64,000 nucleotides of DNA from Psammoneis japonica (lineage: Eukaryota), in NCBI GenBank assembly GCA_008632985.1, contig QPGO01000068.1, positions 248,001 to 312,000 on the forward strand, read 5' to 3'. Numbering within the stretch: position 1 is the first letter of the stretch; each line of letters begins with the position of its first letter. The notes below the pieces were generated by a model. That model saw only the letters and a program-made list of their open reading frames with translations, was not told where the DNA came from and did not search any database. Positions 15,166 through 62,700 of this stretch are shown here, one piece after another. Made by a program: the position numbers and the translations under genes.

Positions 15166-15260
15166 CTAATGACCACATGCTGTGTGCACAAGAAAAAACA
15201 ATTCACGTGATTTTGTCATGGAACTCGCATTCACCAAAAGCTTTGGGGGGGTGGGGGACC

Positions 15261-23000: not shown

Positions 23001-23179
23001 GGCTCTCAAGTTGTGTTTCCTTCCACGTCATGTGGCAGCAACAAAGATGCAGGAGCTTGTCTTGTCTCTTCAAGGCAACTGGTCAATCAGCAAAGCAAAA
23101 ATTTTGCTGCCTTGAGTCAGCACCCTTTTGCTGTGATGTTTGAAATTTCAAGTTTGACTGTTGCATGCAAGAAGTGACA

Positions 23180-27960: not shown

Positions 27961-28131
27961 CGCAGTGCAATTTTGTCCATTGCTCACTGTGCCAAGTGGA
28001 AGTGTGCCCAAAAACAACAAAATGTGGAACTGACTGTTGTGCAGGTCCAGCCAGAGCAGCTCGTGTTTGTGACACTGCTTTTTTGCATGCAGGATGGTGT
28101 GCTGACAGACACGCACGCACACACACACACA

Positions 28132-31100
28132 TGTTGAACAAATGAAATCATCCACAAGTTGAAAACTGGCAGATGTGCAGTCATGAAGATGTTGAGGACA
28201 TGAAGCCAATTCCTCATCAATTGATCCAATTGATTGCAATTCAAAGGGACTGCAAAACATTCAGAATCCCTCTGTTGAGAGCTGAAAGTCATCTGTTCAA
28301 TGCTCAACACCAATGGGAAACCACTCCACTGCATGCTCACAATTTGTGAATTCACTTCACTGCAACAACCAAACTCTCCATCAGCCCCAATGCTCTGGTG
28401 AACATTGTCAGCTCCAGCTCTGATGGCCAGTGGTCAGGCATTTTGACATCTGCACTGAGCCAGACAGAAGAGATGACCAGTCATCAACATGTTTTTTCTG
28501 ACACCTGCTCAGGCCATCACAGGCATTCTTGACTTTGTCAAAAAGGCACATCAAGCCATTTGCAACAAGGCAGTTGAAACAATCATGGAAAATGGCTTTG
28601 ACTGGACACAATGGAAACTGTTTCTGTTCCTCAAGACCCTCAAAGATCAAGCTGCTAAGAATGGTTGGAATGAAGATGATGGAATCCTGATGATTCCTGA
28701 CAATCCAACAGACATCATGTTGGACACCACCAATTTGTTGACACACTGTGCAGTCAGATTGAATTGGACCTCATCTGCAAATGCAAGTGCTTGTGCATTG
28801 ATCAACCAGTGAGGCCACCACAAGACACAAGGATGCTTGTCCACCTTCTTGTGCACACACTTTCAGAAGGAAGCACGACCAGGATTCCAGTCTGGGAAAA
28901 GCAGCAAGAGATTGTCAAGAACAACAAGACACATCTGTTGGGAAACCTTCTGTCAAAGGTGACAATCCAACACAACTGCAACAAGCACCAGGATGAATCT
29001 CAGCAATCTTGACAAAAGTGTTGGCACAGTCTCAGGCAAGATCATTGAACTCAGTCAACATGTGCTCTTCCTGTTGCAAGCTCTCAAGTCTCATGGTGAG
29101 ACTGTGGAAGATCTTTGACTGAACTCATTCAAGGGGCACCTCACAGCATGTGGCAAGACATTTGTTGATTGCGCACATTGCAAGCAAAACAAGTGTGATG
29201 AAGGAAACAATGTAAACCCTGACAAAATGATGTGAGTGTTGCACAGTTGACAAGCACAAGGAGATGGCAAGGATGGAAGAATGGAGCACCCCATCCCTCA
29301 AGGAGGAGAAAATTCTGGCTCTAGAAGCCAAGGTTGATGCCCTCAAGAAATCATTGCAAGGCAAGAAACCTGATTCTAAGAAGAGAGGAAATGCCAAGAA
29401 TCACAATAAAAGAGGAAAGAAGACTTCTGGTCTGAAGCCAACTTGGTTGGAAAATGATGAAAGACCCACAAACAATCAACTTCTTTACAAGCCCCAACAC
29501 TGGAATGACAAGCCGTGCTGTCATTGTCACAAGGACACAGGCGGAAAGTGGGGTGGAAAGTGGCAGATCCACAAACCATCAGCATGTGAAAGAAAAAGCT
29601 TTGTTGCCCAAAAACTTGGAGGTGCAAAAAAAAAAAGTCCTCCCAAGAAGGGACAAGAGGTGCTGTCGACCAAGAAAACCCAGAAGGACCTCAAGCTGCT
29701 GAAACTGTCTAAAGCTCTCACTGCCATTGCAAATGAAATTGAATCCTCCAATGAAGAATGACTGGTGGAGCAAGGCAGCAAACCTGACTGTGAATGGGGA
29801 ATCCATGGAGTTGCCATTGGCATGATGTCATTGGCAATGTGGCGCGCAACTGCACTTGTGGCTGGACCACTGTTGCTGCCACCAATGCTGTTTGTGTGGA
29901 TGGCTGCAACCTGCAATTGGATCTCCATCACAGTTTGTGAATTGACAAGGGAAGCAATTGCAAATTCTGTTCCAAACAAATTTGTCACCGGAGCTCATGT
30001 GTTGCTGACAATTGTCATTTTTTGTCTCATTGTTCTCCTTGGCAAGGATCTAGAAAACCCAAATCCGTGCTGCACTTCACCACAAAGCAATGGAAGAAAT
30101 TCAGAAGATTGTTGTGGCAAGCCAAGTCAAGCATGCAATGGATGGGAAACAGAGTTGGTCAAAGTGTTGAAAGAAGAATTGATCAACTGTCCACAACCAA
30201 GCAATCCTGAAGAGGGAGAATCAGGTGAGTCCAAGAGTTGTCAAAGCTGATCAACAACAAACATCACAGAAGACATTCAACAGGCTGGCAGGCATGACTG
30301 CAGCACTGGCTGTCCTGGCAGTCTGCATGACAGTCCAGAATGAAGCTCTCAAATGAGAAAACATGACTCAATTTGACATGGATTTGGGACCTGCAGGCAT
30401 GGACAACTGATGCACTGGATGCATGTCCAGCTCAGCAACAGACTTTGTGAGCAAGCTCATGCCAAGTGAGCGAGCTGTGAAAGGATTTGGAGGGTCAAGA
30501 ACAAAAGGAGTCATGACAGGCACATTGCTCTGGCAATGGCATGATGACAATGGGGCTGGCTGCTCACTTGTTTAAAATCCCAAACTCGCACCATGCACCC
30601 AATGGCAAGGTTGTTTGTCTGTCAAGTCCCCAACACTGGGCAAAGACAGAAAAGGACTGCAAGCCAATTGAGGGTGCAGGGAAAGCACAGACTCCAAGCA
30701 GCACACTTTGCACTGGAAAGCCAGAAGAAAAATAAACTTGATGTTCCCCTGAGTCCAGAAACAAACTTTGCAATGTTCAGTCTTGCTCCTGGCTGTCAAA
30801 AGTTCAAAGCCTTCTGCACTGAATGTGGAGTCAATGATGCCACTGAAGTTGATGATCCTGTCAAAGCAAGTGAGGTGAACATTGTGAGCAATGATGAAGA
30901 GGACAATGGTGAGGAACAAGAGCCCAATGACTCAGGGTTGACGACACACACCTGGACCATGGATCCAATCAAGGCTGTCTTGCACCATGCTGAGAGTGAC
31001 AAACATGCCTCAGGGTTGGAGGACAACACTTTGGTTGCCACTCCATTCAATCTGGATGGACCATCTGAGGATGCAGGTGGAACTGGTCCACCTCAAATCA

Positions 31101-34100
31101 TGACAGACAAGGAAGATTGGCAGAAAAAAATGCACTGGCAGAATCATTGAGACACCACAAAAAAGGGACACATCTCATTCTGGTGGAAACTGCAAACAAT
31201 GGCAGAGCAGGGAGTCATCCCAAAACCAAAACATTGGGTGGAATGTAACACACCTGCTTTGCCATTCATGCATGTTTGCCAAAGCAACTGAGCACAAGTG
31301 GCAAGACTGAAACAAGAAGGCTGGTGATCAATGAAAGCCAACTTGACCCAGACAAGTGGTGTCAGTGGACCAAATGGTCTCACCCACACTGGGGTTGATT
31401 GTGCAAATGGCAGGGTTCCTGACAACCAAGCCAAGGTGCAAGTGCGCAACAGTGTGTGTCAACCAACACTCCTGTTTCAGCTGCACACATTTGCAAAAGA
31501 CTGCAAGCACGGAAGAGATGTTGGAAGGCAAGAAAGCTTTTGAGTTGATGGCAAAAAATTGTGGAGTCAAAACTCTTGCTCACCATGGAGACAATGGGAT
31601 GTTCAAGGTGAAGCAATGGGTTCAAGCATGTTGAGACCAAGGCAAAGCCTGACATTTGCAGGTGCCAATGCACACCAGATGAACGGCGCAGCTGAGCACT
31701 GCATCCGCGCGCTGCAGGAACATGCCTGCAGCATGCTCACACATGCAAACTGGCAATGGCCCTCAAGTGTCACCACCAACCTGTGGCCATGCTCTGTCCA
31801 AATGGCAGTCAATGCAACCAATGAAATGCCCAGCTTCCAAAATCCCAAATGCTGCACTCCAACTCAATTGCACACACAAACGGACATCTCAAGCAACCCC
31901 AAGCACTGGACCCCATTTGGGTGCCGGTGCATGTCAAACAAACCACCCATTTCACAGGTGGAAGCAATGACCAAGGGTTGGAACACACTTAGAGACAAGC
32001 CCAATGCATGGCAGGAACATTGCCTTGTTAGTTCTCAATGGAGCAACAGTGCTCGTGAGTCCCCAGATTCATGTGAAATGTGATCCTGGCTTCCACACAA
32101 TGAAGCAGGACAAGTTTGATTCAATGTGGCAAACAAAAGCCAAATTTGTGAGTCAGAGAGAGGTTGACAAACCAACCCAAGGCAAGAAGAAGCAGCTGCT
32201 TGCAACTGAAGCCACCAACAAGTGGAGCATTCCTCAGCAACAGGAAGCAATGCCTCCCTCAGAGAGAGCATCAAAGAAGAAGAGGTTCAAGAAGAATCCA
32301 AACCATGCCAAAATTCTTGACAAAATGCTGGGACCACCCAAAGCCAACAAGCAAGGTGGCAATGCTGCAGCAGCTGGTTTGCTTCCGGCACAGCCAAATG
32401 AACAGGCAGAATCTTCCAAGAAGTGCCTCCACAGCAAGAGGGTGAGTCTGAACCACCCAGAGTGCCAAGGACACCAGAGGTGACAACAAGATCAGGGCAA
32501 AAGAGCCAACCAGTTGAGCGGTCAGTGCAAGCAATGACAGCCAAACTTGGCGCCAATGCCAAAGGGACAACAGAGGGAAAGACATTTTCACCAGTGGCTT
32601 TCTTTCCATGCAATGAATCACCCACATTGGATGACACCAACCCTCTCATGGCACACAAAGCTTCAACAGACCTCAACACCATGCACATGCACCAAGCAAT
32701 GAAACAACAAGATTGCAAGGAACCCATTGATGCAATGCACTGAGAGGTCAAGGTGCAATGAAAAATGGAAACTTTGCCATGGTTCCAAGATCAATGGTGG
32801 CTGACAAGAGAAAGACACTTTTCCAGTCTGCATGGCAGATGAAATGAAAGTGAAATGTCCTGACCCGCTCTGTCAAGAAATGGAGGGCAAGATTGAACAC
32901 AGATGGATCAAGAATGAGAAAAGGGGTTGACCACAGCAAAACACATGCCCCAGTTGCATCCCACAACTCAGTGCACATGCCACTTGCCATGGAAGTGGCA
33001 CACAATTGGCACACCAAGCAACTGGATCATGTGAAGGCCTTCCCACAGGCACTGGCAGAGCGTGAAATGTGTGTGCAAATTCCAAAGGGATTTGAAACCC
33101 ACAAAGGAGATTCAAAAGACTTCATGCTGTGCCTGCATTGGAACCTGTGCAGACAGAAACAAGCCAGATGAGCTGGAACAAATGCCTGGTTAACAAGCTG
33201 ATAAAGCAGCCAGGCTTTGTCCAGTCCAAGGTTGATGAGTGTGCACATCACCAAGGCAAAACAATGCACTTGCTGTGCACTTGGGACAGTCCATTGGTGG
33301 GACCTGACAAGGGAAAAATTGATCAAATTGTCAAGGAACTGAAGGCCTCCAAACTGGACATCACAGCAAAGGGAGATGTGCAAGACTTCCTTGGTGTCAA
33401 CATTGAAAGAAAAAGCAACATTGCTGTGCATCTTGTGCAACCACACCTCATCAACCAGATGCCAATGGACAAAGTTGCCATCCAGGCACTCCAACTGCAA
33501 ACCCTTTGATGGACACTTCAACCACAGATCTGTCATTGGCAAACTGAATTGTCTGGAAAAGGCTGCAAGAAGTGACATTGCATCAATCACTTGTCAATGT
33601 GCACAATTCATGACAGACCATAAAAAGGAACATGGTCAAGCACTCAAATGGCTGGGACACCACATGAAGGGAACAAGAGACAAAGGCACCATGCCTCGAC
33701 CACAAGAAGGCAAAGACTTGGAAGTGTGCGTCAATGCCAATTTCAGCGGTGATTGGGACCCTCAAGGGGCAGCTGCCGATGGTGATGCTGCCAGGTCCAG
33801 ACATGGATGTGTTGTCATGTGCGCCAGACATCCCACACTTTGGAAATCTCAGCTGCAAACAGAGATTGCATTGAGTTCAACCAAGAGTGAGTGCACTGGA
33901 TCATCACATGCATTGAGGAGTGCAACACCTCTTGTGGAGTTGCTCAAGGAAATGAAGCATGATGGCTTCCCAGTGCGCACCTGCAAGCCAATGGTTCATT
34001 GTCAAGTTTTTGAAGACAACAGCAGAGCTCCAGAAATTGCAAAGACCCACAAGCATTGTCCAAGAACCAAACATTTGAGAGCAAAGCTGTGCCACTTCAA

Positions 34101-34661
34101 GGATCCTGTGTCAAGGGGAGAAATGTCTGTCCATCTCACAGACACAAAGAGGGGCAACTCACAGATTGTCTTGCAAAGCCAGCAAATGCAGACATGCTTC
34201 TCTCATTGTGTCCACTGATGATGGGGTGAACCCACTGCATTTTGCTGGGTGTTGAGTGCAATGTCCCAAATTGCAGGGCACATCTCTGATCAGCTGGATC
34301 ACATCAAAGGGCGGTTGCCCAATGTCCTGAACAAGACGGAGTGTCAAATGAATGACATCATCCTCAAGTTGAAAACTGGCAGATGTGCATTCATGAAAAC
34401 ATTGCAGACATGAAGCACCAATTCCTCATCAGTTGATCCAATTGACCGCAATTTAAAAGTTGCTGCAAAGTGTTCAGAATCCCTCTGTTGAGTTCTGAAA
34501 ATGATTTGTTGAATGCTCAGCACCAATGGAGAGCCACTCCACTGCATGCTCACAATTTGCAAGCTCACTTTGCTGTGACAACTGAACTCTCTGTCAGCCC
34601 CAATGCTCTGGTGAACGTTGTCAGCTCCAGCTCTGATGGCCAGCAATCAGGTGTTTTGACA
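28132..34661 (+). mobile_element. Full-length degenerate Ty1/Copia LTR retrotransposon; LTRs 28132-28448 and 34342-34661
   Basis: TG...CA LTR pair of ~320 bp; purine-rich tract before the 3' LTR; gag, protease (FDMDLGPAGMDN), integrase (VSVDQMVSPT, HGDNGMF, HQMNGAAEH), RT (ARLNTDGS, QLDHVKAFPQA), RNase H (WKSQLQTEIALSSTKSE, FEDN). TSD ambiguous because the flank is (CA)n. Confidence 0.93.
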
Positions 34662-36845
34662 CACAGCAATCTGTGGCAGATTGCACCCTGTCACCAGCAG
34701 GGTGCATTGCTGCTTGTCATCCCAGTTCATGGGGAAACATGCAGTGTGCATTGCATTGGCACATGGCACAGACCATGTGCATCTGAGGATTGTGCACACA
34801 GCAGCAGGGTGATGACATGCACTTGGAAGCACAGGGGGACTCTGTGGCTTGGCAACTTGGCAAGATCCAAGCAGCAGCGAGTGTCTGCAAACTGATGCAC
34901 AAACAGGGTTGGAGAAGCTGTGCACAATTGATTGATTTTGTGGAGTCCAAAATGCACACTAACAGGAAATTCACGTGATTTTCATTGACACAATTTTGCT
35001 TTTTGGGGTGGTGAGCCCATCTCACAATTTTCACAAAGTGATTTTTGCAAGCATCTGTTTTCGTTGCCTGACAGTGCATGAGGCATCTGACCTCATTGTT
35101 GCCTTCCTCTTTCTGCACAACTGAACAGACCTCCCAGTTGGGAGTGCAGCAACTCCAGCTCTTTTTTCTCCTGCCATGGAGCTGAGTTTGGGCTGCAAGA
35201 CAACAGAAAGACAACGGGTTGACACTGTGGGGAGGTTGTTTTTAAACCAGCACTTGCAAGGAATTCTGATGCGGGTGCTGATGACATGAGTGCAAAGTGT
35301 TTGGAGTCCTCCTCTCAGCTCAAAGCACAAGTGGCACAGCTGGATTTTTGCCTGCAGGTGGTCAAAACCTCAGTCAGCAAAGCTGTCTGTCGATCAACTC
35401 AAAACATCTAAAGCTGCTGAAGCGCAACCCACCCAAGCAGATGAAGAGAGCTTTTTTAGCCACCCTGCCAACAGGTCTGGGCAAGCCTCCCTTTCCAAAC
35501 ATTGTGTCGGTGAAAATGCTTTCTGACCACCAATTTTTTGGAGGAAGCACCTCAAGCTTGCAAGTGTTGCAGGAAAAAATCTGAGCACTTCACATCTCAC
35601 CCAGTTCAAATGTTCTTGTTTGTCTTGCTCCACAACAACCTGCATGTTTGCTGCATTGCAAAAGCACATTTTGTGGCACCTCAAACCAACAAGCACACAA
35701 CTCACACAAAAACAATGTGTGTTGAGCAGAGCAACAAATGAGCACTCAACAGAGTGCAGGTTGCTCTGCACCAAATCAACACAACCACTTCCAACAGGTG
35801 GATTTCCTGAAGCTCATGTTTGCCTCTCATTTTGTCAAGCTCCTGATCTTGAAAACTTTTCCCCATGCTTGTCAAGACCGATGTTTGATGTGTCCCCAAC
35901 AAAAAACCTGAGTCACCAATTGAAGCACAATTCATGCCAGACTGGAGCCAAGAAAGTGCATCTCATCCCAGCTTGGCCCGCTGACGTGCTGATGTTGACA
36001 GGTTTGTGGCTTCTTGATGCACCAAAGCAGAGGACATTGAAATGGATGAGTGATGTGATTGCTTTCCTTGGCTTTGTGACAACAGCACAGCACAATCAAC
36101 AACTGCAAAGGAAAAGGCCTCTGATGGCAGGAGCAGTGCACTCTGGAAAGGACTTTGTTTTTTCTTTCTGCACACAGGTTGGCTGCTGGTTGATGGCACC
36201 ACATCTGTCATCCAGAGAGTCAGAGAACTAACCCTGATGAGCAGCTTGGTTGCTGACAAATCTGGAACAGATGGCACAATTTTGCACAAAAAAGTGCTCT
36301 GAGGCACCCTCAGATGCAAACACAATGGACTTCTTGTGTGGAATCACTGGACATTCCGAGAGCTGTCCACTTGTTTCCATCCATGTGCAGATCACCCAGG
36401 AGCAAATCCAACAGCAACAAAGCATTGGCAATCACTGTGAGTTGCCCCAAAGGTGGAAACAGAAGCCATTGTCTGTGAACATTGAGCTGCTTGCCCATTT
36501 TTCATCAAGGCAAAGGAACCACTTGTCCTCCAATGACCCATTCAGATGATGACTCAGTCATGAAGTGTTCTTCTCTCTACATACATACAAAGGGTGCCGT
36601 GGGGCCTGTGGCCAGCTGCACAGCAGCATCGAACCCTTGTGCACGACCATCTCTGGCCCCACCCCAGCCAACTTCATGCGGCAACTACACATCAAAAAAG
36701 GGAAGCCACTAAAATGCGGTAAGTGCACACATCCAACATTGAAAAATGGTGGAGTTGCTATGGTTATCAGTTGTCAAGAGAGAACACAACAAACTAACAA
36801 CAGAGGGTGACCTCAAATCAATGTTCTGGCGAGGGCACGCCGGTC

Positions 36846-39833: not shown

Positions 39834-41049
39834 GTAGACATCGTTTAGTCTGGGCACCAGGACCCCGGGACTGAATCCCGGGTTTTTTGAATAAGGAAAC
39901 TATGCATTCGACCAAGAAATTACATTTTTCATAGGAACGCACAGCCGTTGACAAAAGACACAAACGTCCGTTGAATCAACAACATGTCCCACAATTGACT
40001 GCAGGTGCAACCATTTCGGTCCTCACATAATACGTGCTTTTACTTCGATGATAGAGGATCAATGTCTCTTTGATGTGTTCGTGTTCGAAAGTGAAAAACC
40101 CGGCATTCAGACCCGCGCGCTTGTGACAGCTGCACCCATTGTTGGCCAAACCCTTTGCCGTTGGTTTCCTGTTGAGACCTTTTCAGAACTCGGCACAGAT
40201 TGACAGTGTGGCATTGTGTTGCATCGAAAGTGTGGAAAGTGTGTTGGCACTGCAAACAGGGCACTGCAGCCACAAACAGAAATCCCGGGACTGAATCCCC
40301 AGATTTTTGGGGCGCCACGACCAAACGTTTCATGATGACTTTGAACCTGGCCTGGTTGCACGACGCTCGCGGAGCGGCCACTGCTGCACAGTCTGCTGTG
40401 GAAATGGGATTTTGTGCTGTGATGTCATCTTGCACGTAGATTCCACAGCAGCAAGCGCCAGTGCTAAAAAGCTGCTCAAATGCACGCGACTCTCGCGCTC
40501 GTGGATTTTTGGAGTCACCCATTCTTGAGAATCTCCCCACTCATTTTCGAGAACGCTTGCCTTTCATTTTCGAAAATGCTGAGCTTGCTCTCCCAAGTGA
40601 TGCAGTCCACACAAACTTTGTGGCAAATGCCATGAGCAAAGCATCGTCTGAACCACATTGTGCGTTGTTCAAATGCGATGCACTCCATCATGAAAGCGGA
40701 AGGGGGAAGCTCACCCCCGAGCCACATCCAAGATGCTGACACAAGAGCAATTCCATCTCATCAAACACCTCCTTTCACATTGTGAGTCTGGAGATGCAGC
40801 AGCCAGAGATGCGTTCCAGCTCCAGGTGGGACCTTGCACTGCTGCACTGTGACATCAAGAGTTTTTTGGATCTCATCGCATGTCGCGCACGCACATTTCT
40901 GCATGTGACATTCTACGAAATTGTTTCATGCTCCCCATTTTGTGAAGCCAAAGGCTTTCTTTTTTCAACATTTGCAAGAATGAAAATGTGCTGGGTGTGC
41001 TCTTTGTGTCTGCAGAACACACCCGGGCAAACTGTTGATGATGTGCTTC

Positions 41050-42420
41050 AAGTGTGAAGGAGGAGATGCGTTCGTAAAATTGCTTCTTTTCTGCTGGCAA
41101 TCATCCACATTTTCATTGCTCAACAAATTTGCTGCGGAGCTCACATGTGGAATTCTGTGGGCTCAATGTCACATGGAGTCCCACCCAGGACTGGAACCCG
41201 TCTGGACTTGATGTCAAACAATGGAGACGCAAGCACCCTGAATGGAACCAGACGTCAAAGAAACACTTCATTCGTGACAGATTGATGCATCGCCAAGACA
41301 CAAAGGTTCACCCGCCGAAGGACAAATGTGTCATCCACGAACTCACATGCTTTAACATCACATTGCAAGCTCATGAGATGGAAGGCCATCTCCGTTCCGG
41401 CAAAGCAACATTCAGCTGTTTGTCTGATGATCACTGCAACACAACTGCCAACACAGTTTGTGTTTTTTGCAATCATTGTCCTCATTGCATTTCTCTGAAG
41501 TCCAAGAAAAAAGTTTGCATCTGTTGTTAAAGATGGGGGGGAGAATTGCAATGCTTTGCAGCACCAGTTTGCAACACCCTTTTTTTGTTGAGCTGTCGTC
41601 TTGAAGATTCCCATTTCTGGAATCATCCAATGACTTCCATGACGACATCAATTTGTGCGCTCTTTTCATGGAACCCACTCTCATTGGCATCACCGCCACC
41701 ACTGCTTTGTGTTGTTTTGTTGTTGACAACCATGCTTCATTTCTGTGCAACCCCCACTCAGCCCTCTGACAAAATGGGTCGGTTTTGCATCGGCATCACA
41801 GCAATCCCTTGGAGAGCAAAATTCTTTGTCATCTCCCGACAAACTTTCAGCCATGACAGAAGAGAAGCATCACAAATGCTGTTTTCCAGCCAAGGCTTCA
41901 GGCATGGATGAGGTGGGCAGTCCTTCCCATGCCAAAATGTCCAAGGTTTTGATGGAAAAGGAGCACGATCACATCCTGTGCTTGCTTGATCACATGGAGA
42001 TGGGTGACATTGACAAGGGTCTCAATGCAAAGCAGTGGTGCTGCAAACATCCCAAGTGGCACCGCATGAACAACAAGCACCATGTGAGTCATTCTCAGGA
42101 GGGTCCTTCATTGCGTTTTTGCAATGGAGAGGAAATGCCCAAACAAGTTGTTCACCAGATGATGTGCTTTGACATGCTCAAACAAATCCACTCATTGTCC
42201 GGTCACAAGAAGGTGGCATCCACTCATGCTGTTGCAAAGGACAAGCACTTTGATGTCACCCAAAGCATTGTGAAGGCTTTCATTGACACTTTCCCTCAAT
42301 GTTCTTTGAAGCAGCCACGTGTTCCAAAGCACAAAGGTGCCATTGGTCCCACAATGTCTGATCATTTTCATGACAGGGCACAAGCAGACTGCATCGACTG
42401 CACAGAGGATCCCCAAACTC
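41050..42420 (+). pseudogene. Two tandem remnants of a Ginger-like integrase N-terminus (HHCC zinc finger); the second runs into the start of the catalytic core
   Basis: AHEMEGH...FCNHCPHC (~41370-41490) and IHSLSGHKK...IVKAFIDTFPQC..K...GPTMSDHFHDRAQADCID (~42190-42400); both are preceded by KQWxxKHPxW. Confidence 0.65.
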
Positions 42421-42449
42421 ACAGCCATTCTGATGCTGTGCATCTGCTT

Positions 42450-44030
42450 CTGTTGCTCATGTTGCTCCTGTTGTTGCTGCTGGTTTTGCCTCAGAAGAAT
42501 GTTGGTGAAATTTTGAACTTCTGCTGACAGGCAATCCATTTTCCCAACCAGAACCTGTGCATCGGTGCGAACCGAGGAGAAAGCTGACTGTGCAGCAATG
42601 TTCAGATTTTGAATCTCATCTTCTTCTGCAGTGTCCATGTCAGCCAACTCTTGAAGCCTGTCCCTTGCCCACTCAATGTGCCTGCTGCCAAAAACACGAG
42701 CCAACAGATGGGATGCTTCATGCTGCGGACACTCTGTGACCCAGTGGATGCTGTCTTGGCACAGGACGCGAGCGAAAAAAGGTGAGGTTCCACATAAAAA
42801 GTTTGCACCACATGGCCACTTACGACCAACATTGTGTTGCTGTTTCCATGCAGGCAGTCTTGGCCACATCATCTCTGCCAACTCAGTGTCAGTGACGTTT
42901 GGTTTTCTGGGAACTGGTTTGCCAAAGGATGTGTTGGCACCAGGGACGCAGTGAACTTTCTCTCCATGCAGCTCAGAAAACCCGGTGGCAATCAACTGCA
43001 CTGTGCTGGAGGGATCTCAGGCAAGTGTGACACATCAAGTGAATCTTTTCCATGTTTGGTCTGCTGCTCAATGTTTTCCTTGCTTGCCCCGCCCATGTTG
43101 CCAGAATTGATGTCTTCGCGGCCCTGCAAACCCATTGATGTGCCTTTTGGTGCGTGTCTGATGTTTTCCAATCAACCAGTTCATGCTTGCACCAGTCCGG
43201 GAATCCATCATGTTGATGGATGAAGCAGATTTTGGCATTGCTGTGAAACCGGCAAGTGGCGATGGTGGCGTTCATGCCAGCTGAGCATCGCTTCCAGTCG
43301 CGGTGCCGCCACATGCCTGCAACTCTTTTTTTGTGGGAGCCTTGTTTGCCTGTGAACCATTGCTCAATCAGAGCTGTCATTGGACGTGCAACTGATTTGT
43401 TTGGGTTGCCGGGGCCGTGAGTTTCATCACAGTGAATGTCTGCATGTCGTGTGAGTCAGAGCTGATCACCTCGCATCATGGTCTGGCTGCAGCTGGTCCA
43501 TGATGCCGCCAAGTTCTTCCAAGCAGTGGATTGAATGACACAATTCAATGTCTTGTCCTCAGCAACACAAGACAGAGCATCCATGGGCAGCTTGTCATGA
43601 GCTGACACAAATGCAGTGAACAAACTTTGGGTGCATCGCTCCTTGTGTGCCACCAGAGCAACGTCAACTGCCTCTGATCTCACAACAAATTTTGGATTGG
43701 GAGGTTTGTGCTCCTCCCAAGATGAATGATGCTGCAGTGACCAAATGACACACTTGTCTGACTTTGGCATGACATCTTGTTTCGACACTGCCTCCAAGAA
43801 GTGCTGGTCAACCTGGTCTTGAGAGTCAAGCAAGGCGGCCCCGACAGAGCTGGCGATTTGTCCACCCACCTTTTGCATGCATTCCACTCAGTGACACAAG
43901 TGCCATCCACCTTGGGTGGTGTGACAGTTTGGGCCAACAAGTCTCCCATGGAGACCTGAGATGCCATCTTGGGTCTCTTCTTCTCACTGTGATGGCCTCG
44001 AGGGATCATCTGTTGGGGTGCACCCACCTT
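42450..44030 (-). mobile_element. Degenerate Crypton-like tyrosine recombinase / Ndc10 domain-II ORF
   Basis: MMRGDQL, HGPG, GMWRHRDWKRC, FPDW, MQLIATGFS..HCVP, ELAEMMWP, NFL..FFARVLCQDS match my recollection of the Crypton/Ndc10 motif order. Confidence 0.65.
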
Positions 44031-44239
44031 GCTGTCAAAAGAAAAGAGGTTTTTGAAATCAAATGCTCACTTGTGGCAGTCAACAAAAAATGGAGTCATT
44101 TTGAATCATGTTGACACACGAGTGGGAAGAAAGAACACAGGTTCTTGTCTTCACCAACCACAGGCCTGTCCGGGGTCCGGGAATCATTTTAATCACCAAC
44201 CCTGCTCATTTCAATTGCCGACAATTGGCGATTGAAATG

Positions 44240-44680
44240 AGAAGCATTTGAGCACATTTGAGCACTTTTGAGCAAATGAGCAGCAACCAACAAGTGATCA
44301 ACCGAACGTGCCATGTCCTGCTGTTACATGCCAATCAACTCTGAAGTCTCCAAACCACAAAATCAACAGGCCTTTTTCTTTTGCTCCCATTTCTGGAATT
44401 CGGGATGCATTTGTCAGACTTGCCGTGGCCCTGAAGCAGGCGACACTGCACATTTGAGCATGCCTTCCAATGAGATGTGCTTGGCCTTGCTGTGTTTCCA
44501 TTTCTCTTCTTCTTTGTTCAGCATCATCATGTCTGTTGGTCAAGGAGAATTCAAATGAGCAGCATTTGAGCACGATGATTCAAATGAGCAGCATTTGAGC
44601 ACATTTGAGCAAATGAGCAGCATTTGAGCACATTTGAGCACATTGTTTGAGCTCATTGTTTGAGCACTTTTGAGCACAAC
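44240..44680. repeat. CATTTGAGCA 10-bp minisatellite clusters (~44240-44285 and ~44553-44680)
   Basis: Repeated CATTTGAGCA / AAATGAGCAG units. Confidence 0.85.
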
Positions 44681-45899
44681 TGGCAATGACATCAGCAAAT
44701 TGGCGATGACATCAGCAGAGTTGGTGATGAGAAACAAACAAATGTTTTCATTTGAACAAATGTTCACAAAAGGATGATTGTGTGTCCTTGTTGGGAGGAC
44801 ACAAATCCAACAGCATCTGTCATGGCACATTTCACATGTGATTGCGGCATTTTCCTGTGCAGGCGTGTGTGCGTGTGTGAGGTGCAAGTAGAGTGCACGC
44901 AGAATTGCCACTGAGTGAGTTGACATGCGGTGGATTTTCTGCCAGTGCACAATCTGTGTGGTCCACATGACACAGACAAATTAATGTGGGTCTCCAGAGC
45001 TTTTGCATGTTGTCAAATTTTGTCATGCTTTTTATGCACGCACATGGCAATTCAAAAATCTCACAGAACATCCCGAAACAAGTCTTGAATCTGAATAAAA
45101 AAAAATTCTTCTTAACGGTCCGAACAGGGTTGTCATGAAGCACTTCTCAAAATGTCATCAGATTGAATGCAGCAGAACATCCGCTGTTGCCAAAACAGAT
45201 TTGCTGTCAGCAAAATGGAGCTGTGTCCTTTGCGCGCAATGACAGCGCATGACAACGCACAACAACACCATGACGAGCAATGCCGCGAATGCCGTTCATG
45301 ATTTTCCAGATGAGATCAATGTGGTTGAGCAATGTTTGTGCACTGCAGTCGTGGGTCAAGTTGGGTTTCTTCTCACTGCTTGTTGTTGCATCATTTTACA
45401 ATGTTTTGACCCACACCGTGTTCTTTGCTTTGTTGCTGCTCTGCTCGATCCCCACCAACAGCTTTTCCTGCAGGGCACGGCCAGCTGCACGGCTGCACAA
45501 ACCCAAACATGTGCGACCAACCAGCCCCACCCCGGCTGACTCACACAGCCATTGGCACGTCATTGCGAATTGACAACCATCGATTTTTTGCTCATGATGA
45601 CACGTCCTGTCGTGAGTTCGGGCCCACCCGGAACAGCTGCCAAGCCATTTGGGCACAGCTGCGTCAATGAGATGCTTGCGGATCACACATGTCTCATTGG
45701 CTTGAAATTCTTTGTGGTTCGCAAATGAACGATGGCAAAGATTTCACGTGTTGTTTCGTTGTGCGCTTGGTGTCAATCCCAGTGGAAAACCTGCGCAGGC
45801 CTGCTCTGTGCTCTGAGCCACAAGCGCGCATGCGTGCATGCATGCTGATGACCTTGTGCAGTCTTGCCGTGGTCAGTGCTCCCCCCCGTTGATGTACAG

Positions 45900-46228
45900 T
45901 ACTACGAATTGCTGAACAATTGCGCGATACACGTGCCCGAAGGGTGATTGTTGCTTCGGGCACGAAATTCGAGCTTCGCGCACGTAGAGACCGTAGAAAA
46001 TATACCAGCATTCGAGAATGTCCGATTTGTGTAGATCACGTAGCACAGTACCACAGAGGTCATTGATGAAAGATGAAATTACTTCAACGACTCATGCGAC
46101 TACAATTAGATTTTCAATACCATATGCTATGTAGAAAGGACATCTGCGCGAAGGAAGAATGTTGCTTCGGGCAACGATATTCGAGCTTCGGGCACGTGTA
46201 TCGCGCAATTGTTTTGCAATTTGTAGTA
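45900..46228. mobile_element. Unmutated MITE-like element with 43-bp TIRs, directly upstream of Y14
   Basis: TACTACGAATTGCTGAACAATTGCGCGATACACGTGCCCGAAG (45900-45942) is inverted at 46186-46228 with 3 mismatches; TA at both ends. Confidence 0.75.
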
Positions 46229-52516: not shown

Positions 52517-53310
52517 CTTTGCTTCTCTAGTAGAATAATCCCTTGAATGTGGTTGTGGGTTCGGGGCTTTGGGGCTTAGGGGCTTTGGGGCCTTTGCTGC
52601 GCTGGCTAGCTGGGGAGTGGGACAGGAGCGAGAAATTCGGACAGGCGCACAAGTGGATGAGTGTGCTCTTCTTGTCTATCTTGCTCTGGACATTGTTGAC
52701 GATGCTGTGACGATCTACGTCATCAGGTGTTGCCACCACAGCAATGCCACAATGCTGCAGAGGATGTTTGTGTCTGTTGCCATCATTTTGAACAAATGTC
52801 ACATTGTCTCCAGGCTGGACACTCCAACAAAGCAAAAAAGTTTTGACAAGTTGGTGCTCTGCTGCACACAGCAAATTGCAGTCTTTGCCCTGTCCGTTGA
52901 TGGAGACATTGCACCCACCAAACTCACTCTCCAAGCCAGCCTCCTGGTTCCACAAGCAAGCAAGATTTGGAGCAGCTTGAAGAGCTGGGCCCAACATGTT
53001 CTCAAGAACCACAAGCTGGGGCATCTGCTCGTCTTTGAACAAAAGATGTCGCTGCAGCAGTGCAAGAAGCTGGAGAGTTTTTGTGAGGCTCCAATGATTT
53101 CCTGAACAGCTTTGGTGCATTTTTGGTTGCTTGCCCTCCAGTCTCACCAGGGAACAACAAGAACAAAGCAGCAGCAGAGAGCGGCCACTGCGCAGCAACC
53201 CACCTGGAAACATTGGAGAGGGCAAGAGGGTTTGTCAGAGGATGGAGATGTCAAGAAGACAACAAACAGAGACTTGAGCAGCCCACTGCAGCAGCCAACA
53301 TGCCACTTCC

Positions 53311-56300
53311 TGACAGACATCCAAGATGGAGAGTGCACTCCCTTGTGTTGGACAGACTGGCACAGACAGCATGGAGAGATCCGATGATCTCTCCTTTGCG
53401 CTCACTTTCTTTCTCATCTAGCACACAATTGTCATCTGTCCCAGACATCCATTGGATTGTCCCTCACACTGGCAGTCTGTAAGGTTGTGAGCAACAGTGC
53501 GCTGTTTATCTTCCTCTGTGCTGCTCTGTTGCAAAGCCTGTTGTGTGATTTGGTGATTTTTCTTCGTTGAAATCGTCATCATTGTCACAGCCATTTTTTC
53601 ACCTCTTGATTTGTGATCAAACGACCACCGTAGAACACATGCCAGAGCTCTGTGTAGAAATTTGATTTTTTTCCCATGCAACCATGGTGAACAAAAATCA
53701 AATGCCATCCATTTGACCATGATAAAGTCAACACTGGTTGAATTCAATCCACATGATCGCTTGCCCGATGCACACCTTTTCCTGAATGCCCTTTGTTTGG
53801 ACAAGATCCCTGCTCCTGAAGATCTTCTGGATGGATTTGCTCCTCAGGGCCTCAAGCGTGACGCTCTTGCAACTCTCTGTCATGAGATTGTTCAAGACCT
53901 TGTCATTCCCCAAGCTGCGCTGACTGAAGATCTTGCGCGCATTGGATTGCTCACAGACAAGGCTCCCCTCTTTGTGGCTGCTCCTCAAGGCTCTCAGGTT
54001 TGCCTGAATCTTGCCAATCTTCAGAAGACTGTGATCAAGGCAATCTTGGAAGGTCATGATGCCACACAATGACACATGTTGGGACTCTTTGTCGCCATTT
54101 TCGTCCTGGTTTCCAGTGTCAGGATTGTTGGGATGACATCTCTGATGCTCCGCATCCAAGAAACTTGACGCCTGCTTCAAGTTCTGCATCTCCACCAGCT
54201 GCTGCTGCGGGGCCTGCACCTGAAGACTTTTGCCAAGGCCTTGGCCACCCATTCACCTGGTCCAAAACAGTTTGAACAGGCCATGACTGACATGTTGAAG
54301 ATGTCTGCTCCTCCTGCACCATCTCCTGCACCTTCTGCCATGACCACTGCTGCGGCCTCTTCCTCAACTGCCGCCAGTGCCATGCACACCTTGATCCAAA
54401 AGGACTTCCAAAGGATGCACCAGCTTGCTGCCAACACAAAGAAACTGGAAAAGCAGTGTCAGGGAAGTCACTGGCACCCTGCAAGTCTGGAAACCTTTGC
54501 CATGAAGATGGCGCCGAACATCTCATCCTCACTGATGGCTCCCTCTTTGTCCATTGCATTGATTGGGATGCCAAGTCCTTTCTTCATGACCCTCTCACTT
54601 GCGACGATGTCTCTCCTCAAGGAATCTGTGCATGGTGTGCTGCTGCAATCCAACAAGCCTTGGCTTGTGGCACACACATGCACCCCCTGTGGTGATTCAT
54701 CAAGGATGGTGGAAATTGGGGCTTCACAAGTGGCAATGATCCAACAGATGATCTCCAACTTTGGATGCGAGCACCACTTGGCTGGTCGAATGAAGTTGAC
54801 TGTCTTTCAGCACATCCAGAAGGTTGGAATTTTTCTGGCTGACTCCAAGTGCCCTGACATTGTTCATCAGTGCCATGGAGATGGATGTGCTGCCATCAAG
54901 ATGATCCTTTTCAACATCCTGCTGATTTGGACAAAGCGTCCATGTGAATTGATCAAGAGCTGCCCGCACCAAAACAATCTTACAATTCTTAGCTGCTGTG
55001 CTCTCTTCAGAGACTTCGTCCAGCTGCGGGCAATCATCTCCAATGTTGATGCCTCTCTTGATGACTCTGGTGAGCTGGACATTTTTCTTGGCAATGCCCA
55101 CTGTGGAGAGCACCTGCACCGAAAAACAGTGGACACCCATGAAGACGAGACCAAGCAACACAAGTTCTCTCAGAAGAAAATTGTTGAGACTGTTGGCACC
55201 ATCCTTGACGAACCAGACAGCCCTGCTCTTCGTGTCAAGGATCCTCCCAAGTGCCCTCCATGTCGTCTCCACAATCAGAACCCAGCCAATCCTCCTCTTG
55301 CAGCTCCTGTGTGAGCCCTTGACTTGCTGCCCAAAGATCAGGCATCTAATCCACCTCCAGTTGTTGAGGAGACTCCAATGGAAACTGAACCTCCCGGTGC
55401 AGAACAAGCCATGGATGCTGTGGAGTGCTTTGTAAATGAACTTGCTGCCATGGACATTCCTCCAGATGATGAAGCCCAGGCACTGCATGGTGTCTACAAG
55501 GCCTGCATCTACAGGATTGAGTCTTCACCTGCTGCTGCACAGACTCGCCCCTGTGTTGTTTGTGGTGAGGGCCACTTGTTCCATGAGTGTCCTGCATTGA
55601 ACAATGCTGAGCACCTGTGCACCCATCTCATCCAGTTCTCTCAGTTCCTTCAACGTGATCAATGTGCCTGAGATGCACTCATGTCTGAGAAGCCAAAGAA
55701 GGATTTTTCCTGGGGCTGTTGTTGCGTTTGGACGAACAATGCCACCCATCTCTCTCCAATCCAAAAACTCCTCCAAGCAGGGTAACTACAAAAGAGGGTC
55801 TAACCAACTCGTCACCTTCTGCTGAAACACCTCTTTCTCGTGTGTCAATTGCCAACCTTCTTTCGGATTCGACAAAGGCTGGCACTCGGATGTCAACACC
55901 ATTCCGGATGATGACCCTGACAGCACCAATCAGGGGAGGGAACCACCTTTGCACAAACCCTTTGTGCAAGAGACTGATGTCCCTCTGTCCACTGATCCAG
56001 ACCAAGATTTTGAATGCCTTGACATGACCACCAGCCAACATTTGTCGCCATTGAGTGCAGTGCATGTCTCCCCAATTTTTTCTCCGCTGGAATCACCTGC
56101 AACTTTTGAATTCTTGACTGCTCCTGTTGTTCCCATCAATCATGTGCTCCATGATTCAACAATCTGCCATGCACCAATTGATGCTGGTGCTTGGGCATCC
56201 TGCACAGGGGATGAGAACCTCCTTCATGATTGCACCCCATTTGGACTGGACAATCCCTGTCCTTTGAAGATGCTCCTTGCTGCTGAAGGATCTGATGCGG

Positions 56301-59300
56301 TCCCTCATGGCTTTGGCCATTTACAAGCACCCACAGAGAATGCTGAAGGCTTCCTTCTTGTGCACGCCTTTACCATCCAAGCCTGCATTCTACCCTGATT
56401 GATGAGTGCAATTTTGTGCGGGCTTCTGGTTTTAAACCAAAGGCCACTCACTCTGATCTTCTCAAGAAGATGCACGCTGATGGAACTTGCATGTGCACTG
56501 CTTCGACTGACACCCAAAAGGCAGTTGTCCATGGTGTCCTCCGACATGGCAAGGTTTTTACACAACCTCTGGTTCCCCTGTCTGTGACTGATGTCTCTTT
56601 GGCATCCACGACACTTGACCCAACCTCAGTTGATGACATTGATGGTGCATGCCAACGTGCAGTCTTTCATGTCAATGTTCAACAAACTCCATCTGACCCC
56701 CTGCTGATGGATGCTGAGTTGTTCTCAATGTAGTGTGGTTCGGTTGCACATGTCTTGCCACCATTGTCTGCTCCCACTCCGGTCTGCTTTCTCAAGGTTG
56801 AGACTGAATGTCTCCTGTGGCACCAGCAACTTGGACATCCCAGCGATCACTGTTTGCACAATGCTCACAAGTGTGTCAAAGGAGTCCTGAAGTTCCAACA
56901 TGCCAATCCAGTCCTTGACATTTGTCCTGCGTGTGTTCAGGCCAAGCAAGTCAAGACTCCCGCTGGACCAAATGCGACTCAAAAGGCAACTCAGCCACAC
57001 CAAGGCCTTGCTGTGGATTTTGCCTTTGCTGGTCAAGCTTCCAAGAACGAAGATTGCAAGTCTGACCATCTTGGATGCAGCGGTGAAATGTGTTGGATCA
57101 CTGTTTATGATCATCAAACACGTGTGCTCCATGGTGTTGCAAGGGTCTCTAAAGCCAGTCCTCTCAAGTGGCTTTGCCAATTCTTGGATCAACATTTGCT
57201 GAATTGTCGTGACAAACATGCATTTGTGGACCAAGGTGGGGAACTGTGCAAGAATCCCAAAGTTTGTGACCTCTTTGAACAAGAATTCTAGTGTGACACA
57301 TGTCCTTCTGGCGCTGGTGCATCCAACCGATGTGGCCCTGTTGAACGCTCACGTTCAACTGTCAAGAACGCGATTTGTGCAATTTTAATTGGTGCCAACC
57401 TCCCGATCAGATTCTGGCCCCATGCTTTTTGCCATTGCCTCTGCATCAAGAATGCTGCTCCTGCAAAAGATCAAGATGCATCCCCCATCACACTTGCCAC
57501 TGGAAAGGTCAAAGATTTTAGTGCCTTGAAGACTTTTGATGCCAAGTGTGGTCAAAATGCTCTGCTGCTTGTTCTGCTGCATTCCGGACAAATTCAAAGA
57601 AGTGTGTCTTCCTTGGCTGTCTGCTGAACACCCTGAAGAATGTTCTGTGGTGGGATCCAGAGACTGACAAAGTCAAGACAGCCAAGCATGTGGGCCATGA
57701 TGAAGCTGTGAATGATCTGTTTTTGGATCAACTTCCTCCGAATGCTGCCCATTTGCAATGCGTGGAAAATGGTCAGCCTTTTCCGGCTGAAACACAGGAC
57801 ACAACCGTGCCAATGTTTGCTTCTTTGTCAAACCCTTTGGCTGCGACTGTTGCTTGTGCCATGAAACGACCTCCCAAGGACCCCACCCATGGCTTTGGAT
57901 TCTCCCAGTGTGTGCCAATGGATTGTGTCTGCATGTCAGAAATCAAGCAGCGCAGTCCTGCCACCTCCTTGTTCTCCTCCCTCCTTGCTGCTCGAAACAA
58001 GATCATGGATGCATGTGTCATCTCTGTCAATGAGCATGAAGTCTTTACACCACAGGATGCTGAAGAAGCATTGTCTCAGGTCTTCCATGATGAAGTTCTG
58101 ACTTTCAAGATTGCCTTTGCAATGGAAAGACGTTTGGACTCCTGAACTCTTGACAAAGCATTTGAGGAAGTGGAGTCATTTGAGCCTGATTCCATGGAGA
58201 ATGACTCCCACGCACCTGAACTCACCTTGGAGGATGTGCGATGTGTTGCAGCTGTTCTCCATCCCAATGATGATTTCTCTGATGAGGCTGTCCCAACGGA
58301 TTTTTTTTATGCCCACCCAATGCGATTGGTTCCCGCTCTCTCACTCCGGAAGAGGCTGCTCTTGACCGTCTCACACCCGTGCCAAGCTCCATAAACTTGA
58401 CACATGGCCTGAATGGGAAGAAGGAGAGAAGTGTCAATTGGACCAATTTTGTGCACTTGGCATGCATGGACCTCCTCAACTGCATCCCCCTGGAGCGAAT
58501 GTCATGCGTCTGCATTGGGACTGCATGGCAAAGCCAGATGGACAACGCCGTTCCAGGCAATGTGGAGATGGATCCAAGTCGGCCATGCCAGCATTGCATG
58601 AGCTGACTTCCACCTGTTCATCGTGTGTGGAACATTCCATTAAAAAGATGTTCTTTGCTCTCAGTGCAGCTGTGTCCTGTCATGTCTTTGGTGGTGACAC
58701 CCGGGATGCCTGTGCTCATTCCCCTGGTCCTTCACAACCAGTTTTCATTGCCATTGATGACGCACATGCTGCGTGGTGTGAAAAACGTTTTGGCAAGAAA
58801 GTGCCCTGCCATTGTGTCCTCCTGCTCAAGCATGCTCTCCAAGGCCATCTTGAAGCTGGCGTCTCATGGGAAAAGCATGTCAACTTGATGCTGACGGGTG
58901 TGAAACTTCTTTTCTGCAATGCTGCTCATGACAAGTGCATCTGCTCTGGTGAATGTGATGGTGTCAAAGTCCTCTTGCTCCACCAAGTCAATGATTTTGC
59001 ACTTGCTTGTCCCTCCAAGAAGATTGCAAAAGAGATCTGTAACCATGTTGGAAAGGCTCTTCAGATGGAGAATGAGGACACCCCCCATTCAAGCATCTGG
59101 GTTTGGTCACTGAGTTCAATGGCATTGATGTCATCCAAAATGATGATTCCATCATGATTGATGTTGCCGGTCATCTGGACCACATCTTCAAGACCCACAG
59201 ATGGAATGCTCTCGCTGCGAATGAATTGGAAAATGATTTCAAGGCTGCACCTGCACCGGTCAATTGCACTCCTGATCTGTGTGCCACTGAAGGCCCAGCA

Positions 59301-60407
59301 GAGGGCACTCCCAAGTGTGATGCTCTCTCTGAGTCCCAAGGTTTCTCCTGTCATTCTGTCCTGGGTGAGTTGGTCTTTGCTTGTTCGTGTTGTTGCTTGG
59401 ATGTTGGTTGTCCTGTTGTCACTTTGTTTAAGTTCTCCAAGGCTCCAGCTTAAGTTCATTGTGATTCCCTCAAGTGCATGGCCAAGCATTTGTGGCGCAC
59501 CAAGCATTGGGGTTTGACGCGCAAGAAGGCCAAGTGTGATGCCGGTCTCCCTCCCAATGACTTTGAATGGCTTGAGGATGATCCATCTCTCCCCAACTTC
59601 CCTTGTGCTGATGATCTTTTTCAACTCCTTGGTTTCATTGATGTGGCTCATGCCGGTGAACTTTGGCATCAGCGGTCTGCCACTGGACATGCACATGTCC
59701 TTGCCGGTGCTGCAATTGATTGCTGTTGTCGCACCCAGACCATTGCAGCTGCCAATTCAACAGAGGCCAAATTTCTTGCAACCATCACTGGTGCCAAGCA
59801 GACTCTGCATCTTCGAATGGTTCTCAAAGAGCTGGGCTTTCCCCAACATGATCCTGCTCCCTTGCACATTGAAAATTCTTCTGCCATCCAGATGATCGAC
59901 AACAAGGTGCCTGCAGAGTGATCTCGCCACATTGACATTCAACATTTTGCAATCCAAGACTGGTGTGATGTGGGCAAAATTGTCGCTCAACACATTCCGG
60001 GTGTCATCAACCCTGCTGATGTCTTGACCAAGGCAGCGGGCTCGACACTTCATTCTTGCCATGCTTGCCATTTGATGGGACACTGCGGTTGATTGTTGTC
60101 ATGTTTGTGGGTCAAGTCTTGGGTGTGTTTCTTTTTTCTGGTCCTCTCATTTGTTTTGCCATTCTGGTCCTCTTTTTTTCTTTGGATCGTCTCTTTCTTT
60201 CTTGATGAGCTTTTGCATTGCTCATCAGGGGAGGGTGACAGACATCCAAGATGGGGAGTGCACTCCCTTGTGTTGGACAGACTGGCACAGACAGCATGGA
60301 GAGATCCGATGATCTCTCCTTTGCTCACTTTCTTTCTCATCTAGAGGGCATGATTGTCATCTGTCCCAGACATCCGTTAGATTGTCCCTCATGCCAGCAG
60401 TCTGTAA
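53311..60407 (+). mobile_element. Full-length degenerate Ty1/Copia LTR retrotransposon; 172-bp LTRs 53311-53482 and 60236-60407; 5-bp TSD CTTCC
   Basis: CTTCC at 53306-53310 and 60408-60412; PBS-like GGTTGTGAGC at 53483; PPT AGGGGAGGG at 60227-60235; zinc knuckle CVVCGEGHLFHEC, LWHQQLGH, DQGGEL, HALQGH, QVNDF, NSTEAKF, RHIDI, NPADVLTK. Confidence 0.95.
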
Positions 60408-62189: not shown

Positions 62190-62700
62190 GACAGGCAGAC
62201 ACATTCAAGCAGATGAGCTGACACAGATGAAGAACATCTTGAGGCAATGGCAGGCATGAGATTTTTCAACAGCACAGATCCAGGCTCTTGTGGGTTGTAG
62301 ACAATTGTTCAATCTTGGGTGGGAGCATTTCCAGCAATGGACAGAAGCTGGCATCAAGCTTGCAGAGACTGTGCATCTTGCCAATCTCAGGCAGATGTCT
62401 TGCGAGTTTCGTGCAGCTGACAAGACAGAGATCTGCAAGACCAGCCAAGCTGCCAATGCCAGGTGACAACATCTCAAGCAAACCACAACAGCTCACATTG
62501 AGAGTGCAAAGCTGCTTGAGCATTCCAGTCTCATTGGGGACCATTGTGAGCAACTTAGAAACAAAGGGCACAGCTTCTTGAGAGCTTTGCATGCACAGAT
62601 CTCAGAAGGCATGGACTTGAGCTGTTTTCAATCAAAAAGACCAAGGCAACAAAGCACCATGAGATGCTTCATGTCCAGCATCAAGGCTGTGATGTCCGCA
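62190..62700 (-). pseudogene. Hypermutated leucine-rich-repeat gene remnant
   Basis: VPNETGMLKQLCTLNVSCC, LSPGIGSLAGLADLCL, LPEIGKMHSLCKLDASFC, LPPKIEQL..KSLDL: 24-aa LRRs, with an in-frame stop. Confidence 0.7.

Follow-up and report, generated by a model that had tools for sequence, protein, structure and literature searches.

Loss of TpA ahead of CpG decay in repeat blocks of the diatom Psammoneis japonica

The window, a 64,000-nucleotide stretch of Psammoneis japonica DNA (contig QPGO01000068.1, positions 248,001 to 312,000 of the forward strand), contains three blocks depleted in TA. The DNA between the three blocks is gene-rich and includes genes for MoeA, dihydroxy-acid dehydratase, eIF3a and a prenyltransferase. 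The genes of the window are TA-normal. The blocks and the repeats in and around them are as follows.

12795..36576, no strand: large TA-depleted block, low in both TA and CG (CG-low segment 12904-36826)
14031..15180, minus strand: family C homologue, with 5 of 51 TA and 9 of 40 CG kept
40053..45893, no strand: TA-depleted block, largely a repeat mosaic (two-state segmentation; parts of 41400-44850 were left out of the repeat search)
40055..40800, plus strand: fragments of older repeats (38 other matches at 69-88% identity)
40808..41202, plus strand: copy of a 397-bp TIR element, family B (against L122, 2 of 23 TA and 11 of 23 CG kept)
41399..44835, no strand: CG-depleted core inside the block 40053-45893, narrower than the TA-depleted zone (segmentation)
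44855..45543, plus strand: old copy of a 722-bp repeat, family C (against the young copy L064, 4 of 48 TA and 17 of 39 CG kept)
45543..45885, plus strand: old copy of a repeat related to family A (0 of 20 TA and 12 of 20 CG kept; background divergence 14/188)
45900..46228, no strand: young untouched TIR element, family E (agrees with two other copies at 21 of 21 TA and 26 of 26 CG; TA at each end)
52717..64000, no strand: third TA-depleted block (the TA edge at 52717 and the CG edge at 52719 coincide)

The CG-rich left margin of the middle block (40055-40800) consists of repeats and is not host sequence into which the process has spread. Family B is very abundant, with 1,274 first-look candidates for a 1.4-kb query, and the family E element, which lies directly outside the right edge of the middle block, has more than 100. 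A search of Rfam gave no match within 39500-47000. Tandem or direct repeats are located at 23121-24530, 38548-38805, 39163-39836 and 63609-64000; the segments 39163-39362 and 39638-39836 are 94.5% identical and lie in TA-normal DNA adjoining the block. The short exon at 46298-46459, which we take to be Y14-like, has no match in Pfam.

A sequence-only reading of the stretch 45541-45890, at the right margin of the middle block, had reported no TA and about 20 CG. The recount gives 0 TA, where 18.7 are expected by composition (P ~7e-9), and exactly 20 CG, an observed/expected ratio (o/e) of 0.81. The lack of TA is ordinary at the rate of the depleted blocks (P=0.22). The number of CG exceeds the deep-block rate, with P=1.3e-4 for a stretch that was picked post hoc. 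The region 40080-41400, described as similar, does show the same tendency with 5 TA (o/e 0.06) and 53 CG (o/e 0.66), but is less extreme. The stretch was found as contigs in one sample and one study only. Short-read contigs of run X1 differ from unique TA-depleted parts of the window (e.g. 40284-40751 and 41839-42180) at 0-1 positions; this agreement counts against base-calling error only, and X1 may be the assembly's own sample. At 42494-42782, a high-depth contig of run X2 differs from the window at 21 sites; the same contig omits 49241-49343, as a spliced RNA might. Among the 17 differences listed at 42252-42784 from X1 and X2, 8 restore TA and 7 restore CG, and therefore an unhit relative of that repeat exists.

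Family A, to which the repeat at 45543-45885 is related, is a 398-bp TA-bounded MITE-like element that is also nested inside the 1.1-kb TIR element of family D. Its young copies (96-99.5% identity) carry 35 TA and 27 CG in 398 bp, which excludes a family consensus lacking TA. Comparison with the natural copy L024 showed that all 20 aligned TA were lost from the window copy, giving 11 TG, 7 CA and 2 CG, so that TA erasure is complete, as the earlier reading held. Its view that CpG decay had hardly begun proved wrong: 8 of the 20 ancestral CpGs are already TG (seven) or CA (one), and this loss was masked because family A began CpG-rich (o/e 1.44 in L024). A looser and longer alignment shows 0 of 29 TA and 12 of 23 CG kept. 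The creation of new CGs from TA was considered as a source of CG retention and is minor; 4 of the 16 traceable CGs in the copy are not CG in L024, 2 of them arising from TA, and other copies have 0-2 each. The window copy is a middle-aged one at the block margin, in which the TA process is finished and CpG decay is ~40% done, lagging behind that of its two closest relatives, L002 and L003 (8/20 vs. 36/43 CpGs lost, P=0.0009). The 350-bp stretch is only a modest example, and the strong evidence sits in its relatives. The sequence at 14030-15165, proposed earlier as its homologue, matches the neighbouring element at 44855-45546 instead. Between these two family C copies, CpG decay does not differ significantly (23/32 at 14031-15180 vs. 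19/36 in the copy starting at 44855, P=0.14).

The rates of TA and CpG loss were estimated from copies of families A, C and D that were compared with young natural copies. These young copies, not a tree, gave the direction of change, and columns varying among unhit copies were masked. Alignment blocks of fewer than 12 columns, gap-adjacent columns and family A copies nested in family D were left out, as was family B because its reference is itself partly hit. The copies are the top-scoring matches of the queries and not a random sample. The eight partly hit copies lost 205 of 353 TA vs. 32 of 364 CG, a hazard ratio of 9.4 (5.9-15.6 by bootstrap over copies), and show transversions at 5/5133. 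Across 63 copies, CG loss was 1.6%, 6.6%, 10.8%, 32% and 50% at TA losses of <15%, 15-50%, 50-80%, 80-95% and >95%, respectively. CG loss exceeded TA loss in none of the 27 affected copies, which bears out the earlier claim that TA loss is the faster of the two, here by ~9-fold. The copy L091 lost 24 of 24 TA, 3 of 21 CG and 2 of 244 other sites. The TA process nearly saturates while the background divergence is still ~1-2%.

Genome-wide statements are based on a sample of 454 kb, 0.5% of the 91.4-Mb, 597-contig assembly, which comprises 164 kb of the window's contig, 100 kb of contig C1 and 19 pieces of 10 kb. After two of 908 counting windows with N were dropped, the TA and CG o/e values of the remaining 906 are correlated (Spearman 0.70). 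The relation is L-shaped and one-way: 50 of 321 TA-poor counting windows keep a CG o/e of at least 0.6, vs. none of 198 CG-poor ones that is TA-normal. Segmentation of the sample assigned 14.1% of bases to TA-low/CG-high DNA vs. 0.6% to the reverse. TA is saturated (o/e near 0.05) in ~40% of the sampled DNA. DNA that is TA-poor and CG-rich also forms whole multi-kb blocks, not just margins. L185, L186 and C68 upstream of the window are stretches of several kb that are poor in TA but rich in CG over their full length (more than 6 kb in L185) and are probably younger large elements. Block length showed no relation to CG level among 20 complete blocks. In already TA-depleted DNA, a 1.8-kb pair (L042 and L053, 95% identical) has 48 of its 86 mismatches at CpG and represents a late phase in which only the CpG clock has targets left.

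Loss of TA alone was observed in a low-copy duplicate on contigs C349 and C222. The C349 side of the pair is given below.

L206:2050-3101 and L110:1-600: C349 side of the pair, compared with L207 and L114 on C222; paralogues L208-L211

Between the two near-identical loci (98.7%), TA accounted for 20 of the 24 differences seen at first. In the extended zone of 1,384 columns, 45 of 60 TA and 0 of 68 CG were lost with 46 substitutions in total. The duplicated segment is present in three copies on each contig, and the matching spacing of the copies suggests that C349 and C222 are probable haplotypes of each other. The first pair of copies has 46 TA differences, no CG and no other differences in 1,649 columns; the second has 11 TA, one CG and no other differences in 1,642 columns; the third has 7 TA, no CG and 5 other differences in 704 columns. 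Over the 3,995 columns of the three pairs, there are thus 64 TA differences, one CG and 5 others, with every TA loss on C222 and none on C349. Comparison of these sequences suggests that TA editing can reach 75% in one lineage alone, without CpG decay or background change, and that the TA process can strike a single copy or haplotype lineage in a burst.

Analysis of the sequence context showed that the site of TA loss depends on the bases 3' of the A. At the informative sites, which have a TAY on one strand and a TAR on the other, the TAY strand was the majority one at 70, the TAR strand at 18 and neither at 3 (70/88, P=2e-8). A hazard model of 76 copies and 184 sites, with effects relative to A, gave factors of 3.5 (2.5-7.3) for C, 4.0 (2.9-6.9) for T and 1.3 for G at +1. 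At +2 the factors were 2.3 (1.5-4.1) for G and 2.0 for T, the effect of G being modest. Among 512 TAs surviving in depleted DNA, TTAA is enriched 5.95-fold and CTAA/TTAG 2.9-fold, and ATAT and ATAC/GTAT are nearly absent (0.01-0.02-fold). In the clean patch of the duplicate, TAC was favoured (25/40) and TAT was not (8/37), so the preference for TAC is firmer than that for TAT.

TA is palindromic, and therefore the sequence cannot tell whether the A or the T was altered. The altered base may be the T: the thymine in purine-T-A would be oxidised (5hmU/5fU) or otherwise converted and read as C, by a process that is still dedicated and uncoupled from 5mC decay. A>G in TAY equals T>C in RTA on the opposite strand, and all of the counts fit a thymine reading equally. 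The genome also encodes, at L195:519-1991 on the minus strand (G000:C79), an open frame that fuses a guanine/guanosine-deaminase-like domain to a DIOX_N/2OG-Fe(II) oxygenase. Its best PDB matches are tropC and thymine dioxygenase (E 1e-20), with tropC scoring as high, and an Atlas search with the fusion returned only matches below 0.8. However, the DIOX_N family and guanine/guanosine-deaminase-like domains act on small molecules in solved relatives and nothing ties L195 to DNA. We consider an altered thymine unlikely.

The edges of the blocks bear on the claim that the TA mutator spreads further than methylation. The left edge of the middle block (40053) is 2-5 bp from the starts of the repeat matches (40055-40058), and its right edge (45893) lies no more than 10 bp from the end of homology to the closest relatives (45883-45885). 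Outside the blocks, the TA frequency is flat right up to the edge. Inside the blocks, the frequency of G after C is 0.105-0.119 at 100-500 bp from the edge vs. 0.075-0.094 beyond 750 bp. This edge effect on CpG is real but smaller; position at an edge adds to the rate gap and does not explain it. If the two processes ran at equal speed and the TA mutator only left the repeats further than methylation, the margins would lose TA alone. The somewhat higher CpG retention near the edges, the CG-low core that is narrower than the TA-low block and the smaller CpG loss of the window copy than of its relatives would all agree with such a wider reach. However, the TA edges match the repeat ends, the rate gap is present also in copies with both flanks depleted, and the editing of TA declines on the side that faces the genes: where only one flank of a copy is depleted, 152 of 498 TA near that flank were edited vs. 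90 of 417 far from it (P=0.003). A wider reach at equal speed is therefore improbable, and the claim of further spreading is weakly supported at best: both TA edges of the middle block lie no more than 10 bp from repeat ends, and whole multi-kb blocks are likewise TA-poor and CG-rich.

The position of a copy is also associated with its being hit. Leaving out three copies with short flanks and one near-duplicate, hits were absent from all 20 copies with both flanks normal and present in 21 of the 39 that have a depleted flank (P=2e-5). This comparison does not separate age from position, and the spared copies with normal flanks may simply be young. The 18 of the 39 depleted-flank copies that are still below the hit threshold are as expected for recent insertions. 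L109 and L082 are almost unhit with both flanks TA-depleted (L109, with 0 of 76 TA lost, served as the reference copy) and are probably recent insertions not yet edited.

The mutational spectrum and the placement of the hits were used to weigh a coupling of the two losses. In the partly hit copies, A>G was found at 196 of 660 TA vs. 10 of 2272 other A (AA 4/974, CA 6/590 and GA 0/708). C>T was found at 30 of 693 CG vs. 4 of 1508 elsewhere, an excess of ~16-fold, and at 2 of 603 CA. Both products, TG (54%) and CA, occur interspersed within each copy, and neighbouring hits fall on the same strand in 107 of 210 cases vs. 106.8 expected, and in 22 of 44 in the clean patch. Strand processivity was rejected: it was absent in partial copies and gave P=0.07 over 78 copies, with no overdispersion of the TG share. 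Hints of a strand bias are left in the lightly hit C222_1, which has only CA changes, and in L104, with 24 CA vs. 9 TG. TA loss was 0.66, 0.62, 0.55 and 0.73 at 2-4, 5-10, 11-20 and >20 bp from the nearest CpG, respectively. Around decayed CpGs, it showed no excess at distances up to 10 or 25 bp (P=0.83 and 0.15) but an excess at distances up to 50, 100 and 200 bp (P=0.04, 0.001 and 0.003). The distances and the co-localisation are therefore read as shared targeting with separate chemistry. The TA and CpG processes are uncoupled in rate, not in place, as they occupy the same 100-200 bp sub-regions.

A by-product of CpG decay would arise if T:G mismatches left by 5mC deamination were repaired by a Pol eta-like polymerase that mutates nearby TA and restores the CpG. 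Pol eta, as described in the accessible text of PMC7884765, acts at WA hotspots downstream of mismatch repair, and A>G at TA would likewise be triggered by cytosine deamination nearby. The sharing of copies and 100-200 bp sub-regions by the two changes and the strand hints in C222_1 and L104 are consistent with such repair, and successful repair leaves CG intact, so that retained CG alone does not exclude it. However, WA includes AA, which is mutated here at 0.4% vs. 30% for TA, unlike the hotspots described in that source. Hits are not clustered on one strand, TA loss is independent of the distance to CpG, and no excess occurs within 10-25 bp of a decayed CpG. With all 46 differences of the first duplicate pair at TA and a spectrum unlike that of repair, the earlier contention that TA loss is not merely a by-product of 5mC deamination stands, and repair-coupled mutation is very unlikely. 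A two-step analogue of 5mC decay, which would begin with methylation (6mA) or another modification of the adenine of TpA in repeats and end with its deamination, would explain the strand symmetry, the independent events and the shared domains; however, 46 changes without background change need an enzyme and not spontaneous decay, and we give this route only a slight chance. Explanations without a mutator (a family that never had TA, editing of an RNA intermediate or a sequencing artefact) are practically eliminated by the 35 TA in young copies, which refute the first, by TG and CA being mixed along copies with hits that depend on genomic position, and by short-read contigs that agree with the assembly.

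The observations point to two mutational clocks in the same silenced repeat domains, a reading to which we assign a probability of about 0.7. That TA loss is separate from, faster than and not a by-product of CpG decay is, taken alone, very probable. The fast clock acts on individual sites of either strand, where it turns TpA into TpG or CpA; it is confined to repeats and prefers a pyrimidine 3' of the A, above all C. The slow clock is a decay of CpG to TpG/CpA, ~9-fold slower; its cause would be deamination of 5-methylcytosine, the methylation being predicted from the sequence pattern.

The same kind of change has recently been described in an unrelated alga, Bigelowiella natans (Mettrop et al., bioRxiv 10.64898/2026.01.13.699255). 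The accessible part of that preprint reports that, in 11 of 15 lines, viral inserts were hypermutated by A:T>G:C changes at TpA only, and proposes an ADAT2-type deaminase, as a proposal and not a demonstration. The likenesses to the part described there are close: A:T>G:C at TpA only, with TpG and CpA on both strands, foreign or repeat DNA as the target and, probably, a very high rate and activity in some lineages. In the diatom, likewise, all 46 differences of one pair are TpA changes, the edges lie at repeat ends and the genes are TA-normal. The ~1000-fold per-generation excess in B. natans can be set beside 46 TA vs. 0 other differences in 1,649 columns, a very large relative excess from which no per-generation rate can be derived, and its restriction to a subset of lineages beside 64 losses on C222 vs. 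none on C349, whose status as haplotypes is presumed from spacing. As far as the available text of the preprint goes, the B. natans process was measured in mutation-accumulation lines on two viral inserts in which TpA persists (Rho 0.45), whereas that of the diatom saturates ~40% of the sampled DNA, has DNA transposons and segmental duplicates among its targets, and precedes CpG decay. The main text of the preprint does not contain the words 'CpG', 'trinucleotide' or 'diatom', so that it describes neither an order relative to CpG decay nor a 3' preference; its supplementary mutation table may hold context. A literature search that covered few subscription papers found no paper on such a process in diatoms, and only the B. 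natans preprint fits by its title and the start of its abstract.

Repeat-induced point mutation (RIP) acts mainly in a CpA context, depends on RID/DNMT4 and takes place before meiosis. RIP of Neurospora, as covered in the accessible text of PMC7296669, resembles the diatom process in being a hypermutation by transitions that targets repeats and a particular dinucleotide, has sharp limits and acts in episodes. However, RIP as described there makes C>T changes that cluster on one strand and create TA, whereas the diatom process destroys TA without strand runs; C>T at CA is as rare here as the 2 of 603 given above, and same-strand neighbours are at their expected number. Young multi-copy elements among genes, which RIP would recognise by homology anywhere, are spared here (0 of 20 copies with normal flanks, which may be young), and a low-copy duplicate was hit on one contig. 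For the slow clock, the accessible part of PMC9998398 describes DNMT5-dependent CG methylation of transposable elements in Phaeodactylum. Deamination of 5mC in CG-methylated transposons would account for the slow CG>TG/CA part, in line with the CpG-specific excess of C>T, but it cannot change TA and is ~9-fold slower here.

The likeliest candidate for the fast clock is the deamination of adenine to inosine in DNA by a TadA/ADAT-type deaminase; this identification stands at even odds, with the enzyme as its weak step. The silencing mark that guides CG methylation would also recruit the deaminase, and inosine would be fixed as A:T to G:C at replication. Such a clock could serve genome defence by destroying TA-rich transposon ends and codons. 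According to the accessible text of PMC8052359, TadA-derived editors prefer UACG(A) on RNA. Engineered adenine base editors of this origin likewise change A to G after T and prefer C at +1, and a G at +2 is compatible; the pooled diatom copies differ from their UACG RNA motif in also favouring T at +1 without a strict G at +2. The accessible text of PMC10661471 yielded no DNA sequence context for TadA.

The genome holds a TadA-like gene, L194 (E 7e-39, below the curated cut-off), and a deaminase gene, L196, which we presume to be ADAT2-like. Homologues of TadA and ADAT2 are universal tRNA enzymes, and therefore their presence in the genome proves nothing. The genome also has 27 DNA_methylase matches. 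One of these methyltransferase genes, L200 (G000:C34), encodes a chromo domain upstream of a C5 methyltransferase domain and is presumably DNMT4-like; at least six further methyltransferase loci are L199 and L201-L205. Silicon-transporter matches number 24, as would be expected of a diatom, and G000:C38:226311-230342 holds three silicon-transporter domains in one frame of 1,511 residues.

The feature is real and of a kind recently described in B. natans, here with its ordering relative to CpG decay and its 3' preference. To our knowledge, hardly any natural enzyme is known to edit adenine in genomic DNA, and adenine base editors had to be engineered. The diatom genome supplies the ordering (TA first, CG ~9-fold slower, in the same domains), the 3' preference and a near-pure natural experiment (46/46). 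Together, the ordering, the context and the clean pair form a fingerprint against which candidate enzymes can be tested in diatoms amenable to genetics. In practice, genomes of this kind will also mislead efforts to date repeats, build consensus sequences or apply RIP indices. More tentatively, and at somewhat less than an even chance, diatoms may carry a natural chromatin-guided DNA adenine deaminase with a TAY/TAC preference that acts in bursts, one haplotype at a time. Such an enzyme would erase TpA from silenced repeats and young duplicates in a very short evolutionary time with no need for CpG deamination. It would amount to an A-to-G version of RIP that SAR lineages share, and to an adenine base editor of natural origin that works on genomic DNA.
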